A DNA stretch of 5,596 nt, from positions 1-5,596 of the IMG/VR virus record IMGVR_UViG_2711768072_000007; one strand, written 5' to 3'. The stretch comes from a virus. Lineage: Duplodnaviria > Heunggongvirae > Uroviricota > Caudoviricetes. Every line of letters begins with the position of its first letter. The stretch's first letter is position 1. The position numbers and the translations under genes are program-made. Shown here piece by piece: positions 2-5,596 of the stretch. Under the pieces are notes generated by a model, which was given only the letters and a program-made list of their open reading frames with translations, searched no databases and had not been told where the DNA came from.

Positions 2-2029
2 AGTGAGTCACTGGCAGCCCTGGTGAATGCCGGTGTGCGTGGTGGTGAACAGTTTGATGCCATCAACCAGAGTGTCGCGCGTTTTGCTTCTGCATCCGGT
101 GTGGAGGTGGACAAGGTTGCAGAGGCTTTCGGAAAACTGACCACCGACCCTACGTCGGGGCTGATTGCGATGGCGCGCCAGTTCCGTAACGTGACGGCAG
201 AGCAGATTGCGTATGTTGCGCAGCTGCAGCGTTCCGGTGATGAGGCCGGGGCCTTACAGGCGGCGAACGATATCGCCACGAAAGGCTTTGATGAGCAGAC
301 CCGTCGCCTGAAAGAAAACATGGGGACACTGGAGACCTGGGCGGATAAAACCGGGAAGGCATTCAAATCGATGTGGGATGCCATTCTGGATATCGGTCGT
401 CCTGAGTCCTCAGCGGATATGCTCGCCAGTGCGCAGAAGGCATTTGATGAGGCGGATAAAAAATGGCAGTGGTACCAGAGCCGGAGCCAGCGCCGCGGTA
501 AAACCTCCTCTTTCCGGGCCAACCTTCAGGGCGCATGGAATGACCGGGAAAATGCCCGTCTGGGGCTGGCAGCGGTCACGCTGCAGTCGGATATGGAAAA
601 AGCCGGTGAACTGGCCGCCAGGGACCGGGCCGAACGGGACGCATCACAGCTGAAGTATACCGGAGAGGCGCAGAAGGCGTATGAGCGTCTGCTGACGCCG
701 CTGGAGAAATATACCGCCCGTCAGGAAGAACTGAATAAGGCACTGAAAGACGGAAAAATCCTGCAGGCAGATTACAACACGCTGATGGCGGCGGCGAAAA
801 AGGACTATGAAGCGACGCTGAAAAAGCCGAAACAGTCCGGCGTGAAGGTGTCTGCGGGCGATCGTCAGGAAGACAGTGCTCATGCTGCCCTGCTGACGCT
901 TCAGGCAGAACTCCGGATGCTGGAGAAGCATGCCGGAGCGAATGAGAAAATCAGCCAGCAGCGTCGCGATTTATGGAAAGCGGAAAATCAGTATGCGGTC
1001 CTGAAAGAGGCAGCCACGAAACGGCAGTTATCTGAGCAGGAAAAATCCCTGCTGACCCATGAGAAAGAGACGCTGGAGTACAAACGCCAGCTGGCTGAGC
1101 TGGGAGACAAAGTTGAACACCAGAAACGGCTGAATGAGCTGGCACAGCAGGCTGCGCGGTTTGAGCAGCAGCAGGGCGCGAAGCAGGCGGCCATCAGCGC
1201 AAAAGCCCGCGGCCTCACCGACCGTCAGGCGCAGCGGGAGTCGGAAGAGCAGCGCCTTCGTGACGTGTACGGTGATAATCCGGATGCGCTGGCGAAGGCC
1301 ACATCTGCACTGAAGAACACCTGGTCTGCGGAGGAGCAGCTTCGTGGAAGCTGGATGGCCGGTCTGAAGTCCGGCTGGGGCGAGTGGGCAGAAAGTGCGA
1401 CGGACAGTTTTTCGCAGGTTAAAAGCGTGGCCACGCAGACCTTTGACGGTATTGCACAGAATATGGCAGCGATGCTGACCGGCAGCGAACAGAACTGGCG
1501 TGGTTTCACCCGTTCTGTGCTCTCCATGCTGACAGAGATTTTTCTGAAGCAGGCAATGGTGGGGATTGTCGGGAGTATCGGCAGCGCCATTGGCGGTGCT
1601 TTCGGTGGTGGTGCGTCTGCCTCCACGGGGACGGCCATTCAGGCTGCGGCGGCGAACTTCCATTTCGCGACCGGGGGATTTACGGGGACGGGGGGTAAAT
1701 ATGAACCTGCGGGAATTGTTCATCGCGGGGAGTTTGTCTTCACGAAGGAGGCAACCAGCCGGATTGGCGTCGGCAACCTGTATCGTCTGATGCGCGGGTA
1801 TGCGGAAGGTGGTTATGTGGGCGGTGCCGGAAGTCCGGCGCAGATGCGGCGGACGGAAGGCATTAATTTTAATCAGAACAATCACGTGGTGATTCAGAAC
1901 GACGGCTCCAACGGACAGGCGGGGCCGCAGCTGATGAAGGCGGTGTATGACATGGCCCGCAAGGGGGCGCAGGATGAGATTCAGGCGCAGATGCGTGATG
2001 GCGGCGTCTTTTCCGGAGGCAGGCGATGA
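2..2029 (+). CDS. H: Tail tape measure protein (lambda gpH-like), C-terminal ~675 codons; 5' end lies upstream of the window
   Basis: Reading frame is open from window position 2 with no stop until TGA at 2027-2029; the ATG at 23 in the ORF track is an internal Met, not the start. Translation shows a long charged, coiled-coil-like Q/E/K/R/A-rich stretch, then a Gly/Ala-rich hydrophobic segment (MVGIVGSIGSAIGGAFGGGASASTGTAIQAAAANF), typical of tape measure proteins. It sits directly upstream of M-L-K-I-J with an ATGA stop/start overlap with M. Confidence 0.9.
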   Translation, partial: SESLAALVNAGVRGGEQFDAINQSVARFASASGVEVDKVAEAFGKLTTDPTSGLIAMARQFRNVTAEQIAYVAQLQRSGDEAGALQAANDIATKGFDEQTRRLKENMGTLETWADKTGKAFKSMWDAILDIGRPESSADMLASAQKAFDEADKKWQWYQSRSQRRGKTSSFRANLQGAWNDRENARLGLAAVTLQSDMEKAGELAARDRAERDASQLKYTGEAQKAYERLLTPLEKYTARQEELNKALKDGKILQADYNTLMAAAKKDYEATLKKPKQSGVKVSAGDRQEDSAHAALLTLQAELRMLEKHAGANEKISQQRRDLWKAENQYAVLKEAATKRQLSEQEKSLLTHEKETLEYKRQLAELGDKVEHQKRLNELAQQAARFEQQQGAKQAAISAKARGLTDRQAQRESEEQRLRDVYGDNPDALAKATSALKNTWSAEEQLRGSWMAGLKSGWGEWAESATDSFSQVKSVATQTFDGIAQNMAAMLTGSEQNWRGFTRSVLSMLTEIFLKQAMVGIVGSIGSAIGGAFGGGASASTGTAIQAAAANFHFATGGFTGTGGKYEPAGIVHRGEFVFTKEATSRIGVGNLYRLMRGYAEGGYVGGAGSPAQMRRTEGINFNQNNHVVIQNDGSNGQAGPQLMKAVYDMARKGAQDEIQAQMRDGGVFSGGRR

Positions 2030-2355
2030 AAACATTTCGCTGGAAAGTGAAGCCGGATATGGAGGTGAACTCGCAGCCATCGGTGCGTGAAGTGCGTTTT
2101 GGTGACGGGTATTCGCAGCGTATGGCGGCGGGGCTGAATGCTGACCTGAAAACATACCGTGTGACGCTTTCCGTGACCCGGGAGGAGGCCCGGCATCTGG
2201 AAGCGTTCCTGGCAGAGCACGGAGGCTGGAAGGCATTTTTGTGGAAGCCACCCTATGCATACCGGCAGATAAAGGTGACCTGTGCCGGGTGGTCTGCGCG
2301 GGTCGGGATGTTGCGCGTTGAGTTCAGCGCGGAGTTTAAGCAGGTGGTGAACTGA
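2026..2355 (+). CDS. M: Minor tail protein M (lambda gpM-like), 109 aa
   Basis: ORF 2026..2355 begins MKTFRWKVKP and ends SAEFKQVVN, closely matching lambda gpM as I recall it (109 aa, same length). Start overlaps the H stop (ATGA). Confidence 0.9.
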   Translation: MKTFRWKVKPDMEVNSQPSVREVRFGDGYSQRMAAGLNADLKTYRVTLSVTREEARHLEAFLAEHGGWKAFLWKPPYAYRQIKVTCAGWSARVGMLRVEFSAEFKQVVN

Positions 2356-3053
2356 TGCAGGATATTCACGAAGAAAGTCTGAACGAGTCGGTTAAATCAG
2401 AGCAGTCACCGCGGGTGGTACTCTGGGAAATCGACCTGACGGTACAGGGTGGTGAGCGGTATTTTTTCTGCAATGAGCTGAATGAAAAAGGGGAGCCGGT
2501 GACCTGGCAGGGGCGGCAATATCAGGCATACCCGATTGACGGCAGTGGCTTTGAGATGAACGGGAAGGGCAGCAGTGCCCGCCCGTCGCTGACGGTGTCG
2601 AATCTGTTCGGTCTGGTCACCGGGATGGCGGAGGACCTGCAGAGCCTGGTGGGGGCCACGGTGGTCCGCCGCCGGGTGTATGCCCGTTTTCTGGATGCGG
2701 TGAATTTTGTGGCGGGCAATCCGGAAGCGGACCCGGAGCAGGAGCTGAGCGACCGCTGGGTGGTGGAGCAGATGTCAGAGCTGACGGCCATGACGGCCTC
2801 GTTTGTGCTGGCAACACCGACGGAGACGGACGGAGCGCTGTTTCCTGGTCGCATCATGCTGGCGAACACCTGTATGTGGGATTACCGGGGAGATGAATGC
2901 GGGTATAACGGTCCTGCGGTGGCGGATGAGTTCGACAACCCCACCACGGATATCCGTAAGGACAGATGCAGCAAGTGCATGCGCGGGTGTGAGATGCGCG
3001 GCATGGTGGCTAATTTTGGCGGTTTCCTTTCCATTAACAAACTTTCGCAGTAA
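2355..3053 (+). CDS. L: Minor tail protein L (lambda gpL-like), 232 aa, with C-terminal cysteine cluster
   Basis: ORF 2355..3053; the ATG shares its A with the M stop codon (TGATG). Translation begins MQDIHEESLNE and ends FGGFLSINKLSQ, matching lambda gpL in length and termini; the C-terminal region carries several Cys (CMWDYRGDECGYNG...CSKCMRGCEM). Confidence 0.9.
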   Translation: MQDIHEESLNESVKSEQSPRVVLWEIDLTVQGGERYFFCNELNEKGEPVTWQGRQYQAYPIDGSGFEMNGKGSSARPSLTVSNLFGLVTGMAEDLQSLVGATVVRRRVYARFLDAVNFVAGNPEADPEQELSDRWVVEQMSELTAMTASFVLATPTETDGALFPGRIMLANTCMWDYRGDECGYNGPAVADEFDNPTTDIRKDRCSKCMRGCEMRGMVANFGGFLSINKLSQ

Positions 3054-3058
3054 ATCCA

Positions 3059-3802
3059 ATGACACAGACAGAATCAGCGATTCTGGCGCATGCCCGGCGG
3101 TGTGTGCCTGCGGAGTCGTGCGGCTTCGTGGTGAGAACGCCGGAGGGGGAGCGGTATATCCCTTGTGTGAATATCTCTGCAGAGCCGGAGGCGTATTTTC
3201 GTATTGCACCGGAAGACTGGCTGCGGGCAGAGATGCAGGGGGAGATTGTGGCGCTGGTTCACAGTCATCCCGGTGGTCTGCCCTGGCTGAGCGAGGCCGA
3301 CCGGCGGCTGCAGATAAAAAGTGCACTGTCCTGGTGGCTGGTCTGCCGGGGGGAAATTCATAAATTCCGCTGTGTGCCACATCTGACAGGACGGCGCTTT
3401 GAGCACGGGGTGACGGACTGTTACACGCTGTTCCGGGATGCCTACCATCTGGCGGGAATTGATATGCCGGATTTTGAGCGTGAGGATGACTGGTGGCGCA
3501 ACGGTCAGAACCTTTACCTGGACAATATGGAGGCGACTGGTTTTTACAGGATTTCCCTGCCTTCCGCACAGCCTGGCGATATCCTGCTGTGCTGCTTTGG
3601 CGCATCGGTGGCCAATCATGCCGCCATATACTGCGGCAACGGTGAGCTGCTTCACCATCTGCCTGAACAACTGAGTAAACGGGAGAGGTATTCCGAAAAA
3701 TGGCAACGACGAACGCATTCTGTCTGGCGTCACCGCCACTGGCACGCATCTGCCTTCACGGGGATTTACAACGATTTGGCCGCCGCCTCAGCCTGTATGT
3801 GA
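3059..3802 (+). CDS. K: Tail assembly protein K (lambda gpK-like), 247 aa; N-terminal JAB/MPN (JAMM) domain plus C-terminal NlpC/P60-like Cys/His domain
   Basis: ORF 3059..3802 starts 5 nt after the L stop. Translation contains a canonical JAMM motif HSHPGGLPWLSEAD (H-x-H-x7-S-x2-D), a downstream conserved Cys (GVTDCYTLFRDAYH) and His (NHAAIYCG). Overlaps the start of I by 103 nt in another frame, as in lambda K/I. Confidence 0.9.
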   Translation: MTQTESAILAHARRCVPAESCGFVVRTPEGERYIPCVNISAEPEAYFRIAPEDWLRAEMQGEIVALVHSHPGGLPWLSEADRRLQIKSALSWWLVCRGEIHKFRCVPHLTGRRFEHGVTDCYTLFRDAYHLAGIDMPDFEREDDWWRNGQNLYLDNMEATGFYRISLPSAQPGDILLCCFGASVANHAAIYCGNGELLHHLPEQLSKRERYSEKWQRRTHSVWRHRHWHASAFTGIYNDLAAASACM

Positions 3803-4380
3803 ACACGGCAGCGGAAGCCATTCGCGCCCTGTCGATGCAGATGCCGGGCTTTCGCCGTCAGATGAACGAAGGCTGGTACCAGATACGTATTGCCGGTGAT
3901 GACACGGCACCGGAGGCGGTGTACGCCCGTCTTCACGAACAGCTGGGTGAGGGAACGGTCATCCACATTGTGCCGCGACTGGCCGGGGCCGGAAAGGGTG
4001 GACTGCAGATTGTGCTGGGGGCGGCAGCCATCGTGGGCTCTTTCTTCACTGCCGGAGGCTCGATGGCGTTATGGGGTACAGCCCTGAGTGCCGGTGGTTT
4101 TTCTGCCACCACGATGCTGTTTTCACTGGGTGCCAGTATGATTCTGGGCGGTGTGGCCCAGATGCTGGCCCCGAAGGCAAAAACACCGGATTACCGCGCA
4201 ACGGATAACGGCAGACAGAACACGTATTTTTCGTCACTGGACAACATGATTGCCCAGGGTAACCCGATGCCGGTGCCTTACGGGGAAATGCTGGTTGGCT
4301 CCCGCCGTATATCCCAGGACATCAGCACCCGTGATGAAGGCGGGGGCGGAACGGTCGTGGTTATCGGGCGACAGGGATAA
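3700..4380 (+). CDS. I: Tail assembly protein I (lambda gpI-like), 226 aa; N-terminal ubiquitin-like fold, Gly/Ala-rich hydrophobic C-terminal half
   Basis: ORF 3700..4380; translation begins MATTNAFCLASPPLARICLHGDLQRFGRR and contains GAAAIVGSFFTAGGSMALWGTALSAGG and NTYFSSLDNMIAQGN, matching lambda gpI as I recall it. Position between K and J and the 103-nt overlap with K are as in lambda. Confidence 0.9.
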   Translation: MATTNAFCLASPPLARICLHGDLQRFGRRLSLYVNTAAEAIRALSMQMPGFRRQMNEGWYQIRIAGDDTAPEAVYARLHEQLGEGTVIHIVPRLAGAGKGGLQIVLGAAAIVGSFFTAGGSMALWGTALSAGGFSATTMLFSLGASMILGGVAQMLAPKAKTPDYRATDNGRQNTYFSSLDNMIAQGNPMPVPYGEMLVGSRRISQDISTRDEGGGGTVVVIGRQG

Positions 4381-4383
4381 AAC

Positions 4384-4418
4384 ATAAAAAAATCCCGCAG
4401 TGATCGCGGAGCTGCGGG
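4384..4418 (-). terminator. Intrinsic (Rho-independent) terminator-like hairpin oriented for the minus strand
   Basis: Plus strand reads A7 (4386-4392) T CCCGCAG (4394-4400) - 11-nt loop - CTGCGGG (4412-4418). On the minus strand this is a GC-rich 7-bp stem followed immediately by ATTTTTTT. On the plus strand the run is on the wrong side (A-tract upstream, no U-tract downstream), so it is not a terminator for I. Confidence 0.6.
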
Positions 4419-4483
4419 GACAGACAAATGAAGATCAATGTTAAGGAGTTGTTTTTGTTACTCGGGCAAAAAAACACTAACGC
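4386..4483 (-). ncRNA. Candidate small RNA (~100 nt) antisense to the tail operon, defined by the minus-strand promoter and terminator
   Basis: Interval bounded by the perfect TATAAT -10 (minus strand) and the hairpin plus U7 terminator (minus strand). A+T-rich; no convincing ORF on the minus strand within it. Predicted RNA (5' to 3', approximate ends): CGCUGCGUUAGUGUUUUUUUGCCCGAGUAACAAAAACAACUCCUUAACAUUGAUCUUCAUUUGUCUGUCCCCGCAGCUCCGCGAUCACUGCGGGAUUUUUUU. Purely a sequence-based prediction. Confidence 0.3.
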
Positions 4484-4489
4484 AGCGAA

Positions 4490-4519
4490 ATTATAAGCGC
4501 CACAGTCAGTGTGTGAAAA
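4490..4519 (-). promoter_or_regulatory. Candidate sigma70-type promoter on the minus strand (-35 TTTTCA, 18-nt spacer, -10 TATAAT)
   Basis: Minus-strand sequence attTTTTCAcacactgactgtggcgctTATAATttcgc. The -10 is a perfect consensus hexamer (plus coordinates 4495..4490); the -35 matches TTGACA at 4 of 6 (plus 4519..4514). Predicted start near plus coordinate 4483, reading leftwards toward the minus-strand terminator at 4384-4418. Confidence 0.3.
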
Positions 4520-4583
4520 TGTGAAGATATTCAGAATTTTTATGCCATTACCGGTTTTAACCAACAGGATTATCGGTGGGCAT

Positions 4584-4625
4584 GAAAGAAAACCCCGGTA
4601 TCTGCTGATACCGGGGTTTCTCTTT
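4584..4625. terminator. Bidirectional intrinsic terminator-like hairpin (perfect 10-bp stem, 4-nt loop, flanked by A-rich 5' and T-rich 3' tracts)
   Basis: GAAAGAAAA (4584-4592) CCCCGGTATC (4593-4602) TGCT GATACCGGGG (4607-4616) TTTCTCTTT (4617-4625). The stem is a perfect inverted repeat read directly from the sequence. The plus strand has a U-rich tail after the stem and the minus strand has UUUUCUUUC after it. Confidence 0.65.
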
Positions 4626-4722
4626 AGCATGGCAGAAATGTGTTTCATGCTTTTCGGGCGAAGGATATCCGACTTCTGTACGGAATGGCAAGTGGCGGTT
4701 AATTTATTCAGGGGAAGGCTGT

Positions 4723-5596
4723 ATGGGAAAAGGTGGCGGTAAGGCACACACGCCTCGTGAGGCGAAGGATAATCTCAAATCCACGCAGATGATGAGCGTG
4801 ATTGATGCGATTGGTGAGGGACCGATAGAAGGCCCGGTGAAAGGCCTGCAGAGTATTCTGGTGAACAAAACCCCGCTGACGGGCACGGACGGTAATCCCG
4901 TGATACACGGTGTGACGGCGGTCTGGCGCGCCGGGGAGCAGGAGCAGACACCACCTGAAGGCTTTGAGTCCTCCGGAGCTGAAACCGGACTGGGCGTGGA
5001 AGTGACGAAGGCAAAACCGGTGACGCGCACCATTACGTCCGCGAACATTGACCGCCTGCGGGTTACCTTCGGGGTGCAGTCACTGGTGGAGACCACCTCA
5101 AAGGGTGACCGTAACCCGGCATCCGTCCGCCTGCTGATTCAGTTACAGCGTAACGGTAACTGGGTGACAGAAAAGGACGTCACCATTAACGGCAAGACCA
5201 CCTCACAGTTCCTGGCCTCGGTGATTCTGGATAATCTGCCTCCCCGGCCCTTTAACATCCGGATGGTCAGGGAGACGGCGGACAGCACCACGGACCAGTT
5301 GCAGAACAGAACGCTCTGGTCATCGTACACTGAAATTATCGATGTGAAACAGTGCTACCCGAACACGGCCATTGTGGGGCTGCAGGTGGATGCGGAGCAG
5401 TTTGGCGGTCAGCAGATGACGGTGAACTACCATATCCGAGGTCGCATCATCCAGGTGCCGTCAAACTATGACCCGGAAAAACGCACGTACAGCGGCATCT
5501 GGGACGGCAGCCTGAAACCGGCATACAGCAACAACCCGGCCTGGTGCCTGTGGGACATGCTGACTCACCCGCGCTACGGCATGGGAAAACGTCTGG
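4723..5596 (+). CDS. J: Central tail fibre / host specificity protein J (lambda gpJ-like), N-terminal ~291 codons; continues beyond the window
   Basis: ATG at 4723 preceded by GGGGAAGG (4711-4718). Frame is open to the window end, which is why it is absent from the supplied ORF track. My translation begins MGKGGGKAHTPREAKDNLKSTQMMSVIDAIGEGPIEGPVKGLQS, very close to the lambda gpJ N-terminus as I recall it. Last complete codon ends at 5595. Confidence 0.9.
   Translation, partial: MGKGGGKAHTPREAKDNLKSTQMMSVIDAIGEGPIEGPVKGLQSILVNKTPLTGTDGNPVIHGVTAVWRAGEQEQTPPEGFESSGAETGLGVEVTKAKPVTRTITSANIDRLRVTFGVQSLVETTSKGDRNPASVRLLIQLQRNGNWVTEKDVTINGKTTSQFLASVILDNLPPRPFNIRMVRETADSTTDQLQNRTLWSSYTEIIDVKQCYPNTAIVGLQVDAEQFGGQQMTVNYHIRGRIIQVPSNYDPEKRTYSGIWDGSLKPAYSNNPAWCLWDMLTHPRYGMGKRL

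Follow-up and report, generated by a model that had tools for sequence, protein, structure and literature searches.

The stretch of viral DNA analysed here (5,596 nt at its full length, hereafter the window) carries, between the tail genes I and J and on the strand opposite the tail operon, a unit that quite probably constitutes an independently transcribed small RNA (sRNA) gene, a moron of the EcOnc22/23/24 family whose product would act by Hfq-dependent base-pairing in trans. Judged by its sequence, the predicted sRNA is the Sp12-type variant of this published family, and is of a kind already known. Because its homologues are EcOnc22, EcOnc23 and EcOnc24 of Tree et al. 2014, the unit is not a new discovery. 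A preliminary description of the window had proposed a compact minus-strand sRNA gene opposing the tail operon and had speculated on a link to GcvB. The promoter and terminator that it noticed are confirmed, its interpretation of them as an sRNA gene is essentially right, with homologues that have been seen experimentally as Hfq-bound sRNAs, and the speculation on GcvB is not supported.

According to the ORF scan, the window is filled by the distal part of a tail operon of lambdoid type on the plus strand (Table 1). The genes that flank the unit are identified as those of tail assembly protein I and host specificity protein J by the annotation of matching phage and E. coli records. The spacer between them measures 60 nt in phage lambda (I ends at 15444 and J starts at 15505) versus 343 nt in the window, which thus contains approximately 280 nt of extra DNA, and the sRNA unit (4386-4517, minus strand) can be regarded as a self-contained insertion ("moron") at this junction. 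Since the 3' end of the predicted sRNA is 6 nt from the stop codon of I, the transcript overlaps no coding sequence.

Table 1. Features of the tail operon and of the sRNA unit, in window coordinates.
Feature	Position	Strand	Basis or remarks
Tape-measure-like ORF	23-2029	+	ORF list
M	2026-2355	+	ORF list
L	2355-3053	+	ORF list
K	3059-3802	+	ORF list
I	3700-4380 (stop codon 4378-4380)	+	ORF list, matching records
I-J intergenic spacer	4381-4723 (343 nt)	.	gene ends
Rho-independent terminator	4386-4418	-	7-bp stem, 11-nt loop, A and U7
Predicted sRNA transcript, ~98 nt	4386-4483	-	predicted start (TSS) 7 nt past -10, 3' end at U7
Central, mostly unpaired segment UCCUUAACAUUGAUCUUCAUUUGUCUGUC, candidate seed	4419-4447	-	accessibility, conservation
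Family core (A/G)AUCUUC(A/G)U, inside central segment	4436-4428	-	alignments
(A-R-N)5 run AGUAACAAAAACAAC, putative Hfq distal-face motif	4448-4462	-	triplet count vs shuffles
-10 hexamer TATAAT	4490-4495	-	promoter scan
-35 hexamer TTCACA, 16-nt spacer to TATAAT	4512-4517	-	11/12 consensus match
TCTGA-N6-TCACA dyad, CRP-like	4520-4535, A/T-rich flanks to ~4545	-	57/57 promoter-bearing units
J	start 4724, extends past window end	+	ORF list, matching records

The best promoter-like site of the window, near the sigma-70 consensus, is TTCACA-16-TATAAT (4517-4490, minus strand). The TATAAT of the preliminary description was found again, whereas the -35 hexamer with which it had been paired (TTTTCA, 4519-4514, 18-nt spacer, a 10/12 match together with the -10 hexamer) is bettered by TTCACA at 11/12. 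Promoter-like sites as such are not enriched in the window (three found versus 2.1 expected), so that the significance of the unit lies in its conservation and in the experimental detection of its homologues. The -35 hexamer is variable across the family (TTCACA, TTCTGT, TTCCGG, TTCGCA and others), and the promoter of the window is nearer to consensus than that of EcOnc22, which has AATAAT and a weak -35. Roughly 98 nt downstream of the promoter on the minus strand, the GC-rich hairpin and U7 tract noticed in the preliminary description were reproduced by folding: CCCGCAG (4418-4412) pairs with CUGCGGG (4400-4394) in a 7-bp stem that is followed by A and U7 (4392-4386). The -10 element and the terminator are kept among homologous prophages, a point on which the earlier proposal had been made to depend. 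The -10 element occurs in a fixed place as nATAAT or TATCAT in 57 promoter-bearing units among the 63 distinct units compared, and the terminator stem is invariant with a variable loop. On account of this invariance, the stem gives no covariation support.

Upstream of the promoter is a dyad, TCTGA-N6-TCACA, the half-sites of which are invariant in all 57 promoter-bearing distinct units around five different N6 spacers. Its core matches TGTGA-N6-TCACA, the core of CRP sites, at nine of ten positions, and only 0.03 matches to the dyad would be expected by chance in the window. Conservation of the half-sites while the spacer varies suggests a dimeric activator, and the presence of the dyad beside a variable -35 hexamer suggests that transcription from the sRNA promoter may be activator-dependent. 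With its axis at about -44.5 relative to the predicted start, the dyad departs from the canonical -41.5, so that CRP can be named as the putative regulator only tentatively.

The remainder of the spacer contains other elements near J. A strong hairpin of CCCCGGUAUC and GAUACCGGGG at 4590-4619 (z = -4.44), just upstream of J, is followed by UUUCUCUUU on the plus strand and is terminator-like on the minus strand too. In the same relative place, lambda has the hairpin ACCGCC-UGCG-GGCGGU followed by UUUG (positions 762-790 of L223), and spacers of the Sakai type (L016-L018) have a different hairpin, ACAGGCACCC...GGGUGCCUGU, followed by UGUUUUCU. As lambda, the Sakai-type spacers and the window differ in the hairpin and not in its place, lambdoid I-J junctions in general appear to carry a terminator-like structure on the plus strand ahead of J, whether or not the sRNA has been inserted. 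Upstream of the 4590-4619 hairpin in minus-strand sense, within a segment of approximately 100 nt that is found only in the long (343-nt) type of spacer, is a weak match to a promoter (TTGCCA-18-TATCCT, 4691-4662, 9/12). In principle it could drive another RNA from the minus strand (region 4583-4691), ~70 nt long and antisense to the leader of J.

The family was first reported as three Hfq-CRAC peaks, EcOnc22, EcOnc23 and EcOnc24, on the strand opposite tail genes in the Sp15, Sp14 and Sp11 prophages of the Sakai strain (Tree et al. 2014, PMC4104026), where EcOnc22 is also listed with a '~85nt' northern band and as 'Destabilised' in the delta-hfq mutant (Table S2, PMC4104026). After correction of the published coordinates, which are those of NC_002695.1, by an offset of ~140 nt that was verified with AgvB1, the corresponding positions were fetched from NC_002695.2, and all three are in I-J spacers with a homologous unit, between ECs2944 and ECs2945, ECs2720 and ECs2721, and ECs2161 and ECs2162. 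The identification is unambiguous because two independent kinds of published sequence match the body of the Sakai unit: the northern probe for EcOnc22/23/24 (GGGAGAGAACGATGAAGATTAAC..., PMC4104026) is its reverse complement, and RNase E-CLASH reads annotated as EcOnc22/23/24 read GCCTGAAAAATAACTCCATAACGTTAATCTTCATCGTTCTCTCCCGCAGC, within it (PMC5286369 supplements). One of the PMC5286369 supplements labels an EcOnc locus 'asxR2', probably as a find-and-replace artefact in which EcOnc2 became asxR.

The unit of the window agrees with the three Sakai loci in the location and strand that it occupies within the spacer and is homologous to them over promoter, body and terminator. Common to all are the I-J slot opposite the tail operon, the TCTGA-N6-TCACA dyad, the -10 element, the CCCGCAG/CUGCGGG-U7 terminator, a 5' end of GCGUUA or GCAUUA, an A-rich run and the AAUCUUCAU core, and the predicted RNA is 73% identical to EcOnc22 over its full length. 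Differences are found in the 5' half and the linker (for example, GUAACAAAAACAACUCCUUAACAUUG versus GCCUGAAAAAUAACUCCAUAACGUUA), and the window has a longer RNA (~98 nt versus ~91 nt in EcOnc22/23/24), a stronger promoter and a spacer longer by about 100 nt. A copy that is 100% identical to the window unit is present in the I-J spacer of Sakai prophage Sp12 (2217392-2217732). None of the 63 Hfq-CRAC candidates listed by Tree et al. 2014 corresponds to this Sp12 copy, and no sequence specific to the window variant was found in the searchable CLASH tables, so that the expectation that this variant is expressed derives from its family.

The preliminary description had assigned the locus to no named sRNA, but a name had already been published. 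A 2021 review enters EcOnc22, with the synonyms EcOnc23 and EcOnc24, as 'Northern probing; Hfq-CRAC; targets unknown' (PMC7873438). Full-text searches for the three names found no later literature on them, searches of the literature by sequence strings found unrelated primers only, and a keyword search for a characterised tail-spacer sRNA found nothing. The Rfam covariance scan that had been recommended was run on the whole window and gave no match in 4381-4723 at E-values up to 1. EsrF and Esr055 are at different loci.

A blastn search finds the 147-nt unit, at 72-100% identity and in up to eight copies per genome, in 1805 of the 5426 complete E. coli genomes, and also in 129 phage records, all of Escherichia or Stx-converting phages. 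Among the records listed, none has a RefSeq feature over the unit. The variant of the window is the commonest one, found at an identity of at least 99% in 886 E. coli genome records (chromosomes or plasmids). A search of genome contigs based on gpI returned near-identical E. coli-type sequences only; some of these E. coli prophage tails come from assemblies under the names of Streptomyces flavalbus, Parendozoicomonas haliclonae and a Clostridiales MAG (L002, L004 and L005), where they are most likely contamination. In several contigs, two units stand in tandem and point the same way, and both have a promoter-like region and a terminator (L010, L012, L055 at 4420-4692, and L064 at 324-1042). 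Promoterless copies also exist (L015 at 451-632 plus flank; units U05, U06, U10, U28, U48 and U57), in which the dyad and the -10 element have been replaced, and a co-oriented sodC moron with its terminator immediately precedes the sRNA body and terminator. These promoterless copies could be relics, or they could be expressed by read-through from sodC.

Within the transcript, GCGUUA at the 5' end is nearly invariant in the family, and the 5' half is divergent among variants, always with a run of A-R-N triplets at nt 21-36. The window RNA has five consecutive A-R-N triplets versus 1.4-1.5 in shuffled sequences (p ~0.004), and, of 50 distinct variants, 46 have three or more such triplets at that position despite their differing sequences. 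The preliminary description had drawn attention to a single-stranded C/A-rich stretch in this RNA. Such a stretch exists, but its A-run pairs with an upstream U-run in the MFE fold, and its unpaired probabilities are ~0.3-0.6. It is better read as the five A-R-N triplets, a putative motif of the Hfq distal-face type that is kept in position across variants. The most accessible stretch upstream of the terminator is instead the family core, with an unpaired probability of ~0.6-0.8. Its AUCUUC is invariant in 11 BLAST-derived copies and also in a larger alignment. The larger set consists of 136 copies from viral contigs (63 distinct units) collected with a search pattern that required ATCTTC, CCGCAG and CTGCGGGATTTTT, so that the conservation of AUCUUC and of the terminator within it is partly ascertainment; the same conservation of both is found in the independent BLAST-derived set of 11 sequences. 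As a whole, the predicted RNA is not unusually stable (z = -1.14). A conserved 5' hairpin or covariation was sought and not found, as RNAalifold returned the invariant terminator only and the individual folds disagree.

These features point to an Hfq-dependent base-pairing sRNA as the most likely mechanism. Class II Hfq-dependent sRNAs such as ChiX and MgrR have a U-rich intrinsic terminator, an internal ARN run and an unstructured seed, and the window RNA, with its candidate seed, is like them in this layout, with no sequence relationship. Its intrinsic terminator ends in U7, longer than the six U residues looked for in the tails of Hfq-binding sRNAs, and the U7 tail and the (ARN)5 run together give it the sequence features expected for Hfq binding. 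Action in trans is supported by the Hfq dependence of EcOnc22 and by the occurrence of a short conserved core in a variable body. In the inferred course of events, from Hfq binding to action in trans through positions 4419-4447, the RNA would be made in the lysogen from its own promoter, possibly aided by an activator at TCTGA-N6-TCACA; the (ARN)5 run and the terminator U-tail would contact Hfq; the central segment, which is unstructured and surrounds the AUCUUC core, would pair with target RNAs in trans; and the divergent 5' half may contribute added specificity that is particular to each variant.

Candidate targets are few. CLASH chimeras of EcOnc22/23 with yjbJ, ECs5349 and ECs4701 are represented by one or two reads each and are non-significant (p 0.1-0.37). 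The yjbJ chimera pairs through the region of EcOnc22 that is equivalent to the central segment of the window RNA, and this pairing (CCAUAACGUU with AACGUUAUGG) would have two mismatches if made by the window variant. In the 50-kb Sp12 prophage, the cis site is the only complement of the seed that was found, and the flanks of ~120 viral contigs yielded no recurrent match of 10 nt or more. All four of the EcOnc22/23/24 CLASH fragments that include the part of the RNA at GCCUGAAAAAU start there, a fifth fragment further 3' starts at UAAUCUUC, and one chimera joins the GCCUGAAAAAU start to a family-type CUGCGGGAUUUUUUU 3' end that is mapped antisense to ECs1805. The shared GCCUGAAAAAU start may be an RNase E processing site in EcOnc22, the use of which would free the ARN run.

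The main rival to a trans-acting sRNA is cis-antisense action on the tail mRNA, which is possible but rated as clearly the less probable. The RNA would form a perfect duplex with the late tail mRNA at the I-J spacer, whether that mRNA comes from its own phage or from a superinfecting or co-resident lambdoid phage with the same variant, and cleavage by RNase III or RNase E might then lower the expression of J and the downstream tail-fibre genes, as an exclusion or dampening device. The RNA is indeed fully complementary to the spacer part of the late transcript, EcOnc22 at least is expressed in uninduced lysogens (PMC4104026), and seed-complementary sites other than the cis site were not found in the 50-kb Sp12 prophage or in flanking phage DNA; the many variants, several of them co-resident and with as many as eight copies in one genome, would fit specificity groups. 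A precedent is STnc6030 of the Salmonella prophage BTP1 (PMC7067206). STnc6030 resembles the window RNA in being antisense to a late structural operon near a host-recognition gene, and it is expressed from the prophage in lysogeny and offers a plausible model for RNA-mediated exclusion; it differs as an RNA of more than 700 nt that overlaps coding sequence, is unrelated in sequence and belongs to a P22-like podovirus, and no Hfq dependence is reported for it in the passages covered (PMC7067206). However, perfect-match antisense RNAs are usually Hfq-independent, yet EcOnc22 is Hfq-bound and Hfq-dependent. The window RNA covers untranslated spacer only and includes no ribosome-binding site, the start of J being 240 nt away, and antisense function alone would not account for the conservation of a short core and of an ARN run amid a variable remainder. 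Two further alternatives were weighed. The window copy might be silent, its promoter and terminator having been kept only by recent common descent with expressed copies of the EcOnc22 type; this is improbable, for although the absence of the identical Sp12 copy from the 63 Hfq-CRAC candidates and the searchable CLASH tables fits, absence from a thresholded peak list is weak evidence, the window promoter (TATAAT and TTCACA, 11/12) is nearer to consensus than that of the detected EcOnc22, and the variant is the commonest of all (886 records at 99% identity or above). There is scarcely any likelihood that the conserved sequence serves the plus strand, whether by encoding the small protein MKINVKELFLLLGQKNTNAAKL (4429-4497) or by acting structurally within the tail mRNA. 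A 22-codon ORF exists in the window and related peptides are encoded by some variants, but 62 of 136 copies have ACG in place of the start codon, and the ORF ranges from 6 to more than 50 codons with changes of frame. The small protein was rejected as a candidate, its ORF not being conserved among the 136 copies, and neither plus-strand function accounts for a -10 element and a dyad that are conserved on the minus strand, or for northern and CRAC signals that are strand-specific.

A trans-acting RNA could also be an anti-sRNA sponge like AgvB and AsxR, in which an mRNA-like distal-face motif is combined with a decoy for a core-genome sRNA. ARN runs are typical of mRNAs and of the AgvB/AsxR sponges (PMC4104026), the window RNA has its (ARN)5, and prophage sponges are known in the same strains. 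The preliminary description had gone further in this direction, suggesting that the C/A-rich stretch acts as a seed or mimics GcvB targets. Pairing with GcvB was assessed at R1, with AgvB as the positive control, as whole-length duplex folding is uninformative. The duplex of the window RNA with R1 (-18.2 kcal/mol) is within the range of shuffles (-14.7 +/- 3.3 kcal/mol), 14% of which are as good, whereas that of AgvB (-23.7) is clearly better and its value is reached by 0 of 500 shuffles. CACAACA is absent, the C/A-rich stretch differs completely in sequence in other family members, and the suggested mimicry is not supported. No sRNA chimera occurs in the EcOnc22-24 CLASH lines that were retrieved. 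A sponge function is given a low probability.

AgvB, AsxR and EcOnc03 bind Hfq, as the window RNA would, and are like it in being short and prophage-encoded, with a variable 5' part that contains ARN triplets and a conserved 3' part with a terminator. They are unlike it in their length of 51-60 nt and in their lysis-gene neighbourhood, which is not the tail region; AgvB is downstream of the Q-dependent PR' promoter, beside the lysis or stx genes (PMC4104026). Their 3' module of ~42 nt (GUAUCUCAUGCnAUUGCCCGAACCCAYUCGGGC, or GUAUCUCAUGC...GCCCGAACCCAYUCGGGC) has no similarity to 4386-4483 and is unrelated to the window RNA. Membership of the AgvB/AsxR family was rejected on sequence, on location and on complementarity to the GcvB seed.

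The preliminary description, working from raw sequence alone, had rediscovered an sRNA family known from experiments since 2014, and the advance over the literature on EcOnc22/23/24 is incremental. The family proves to be far wider than its EHEC-centred description, occurring in about one third of complete E. coli genomes, often with several variants side by side, and in the majority of long-tailed Stx phages, while being unannotated in RefSeq and absent from Rfam. Comparative anatomy supplies handles on its function: an invariant dyad beside a variable -35 hexamer, an ARN run that is conserved in position, a short accessible core, a variable 5' half, and tandem and promoterless copies. As a long shot, the variants might represent RNA 'immunity types', such that Hfq-assisted antisense pairing leads to cleavage of the late tail mRNA whenever an incoming or co-resident lambdoid phage (Stx phages included) has the same variant, an induced prophage silences its own copy through convergent late transcription, and the CRP-like site tunes the output to carbon status. 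If this were true, a widespread RNA-based layer of competition between phages would exist in about a third of complete E. coli genomes.
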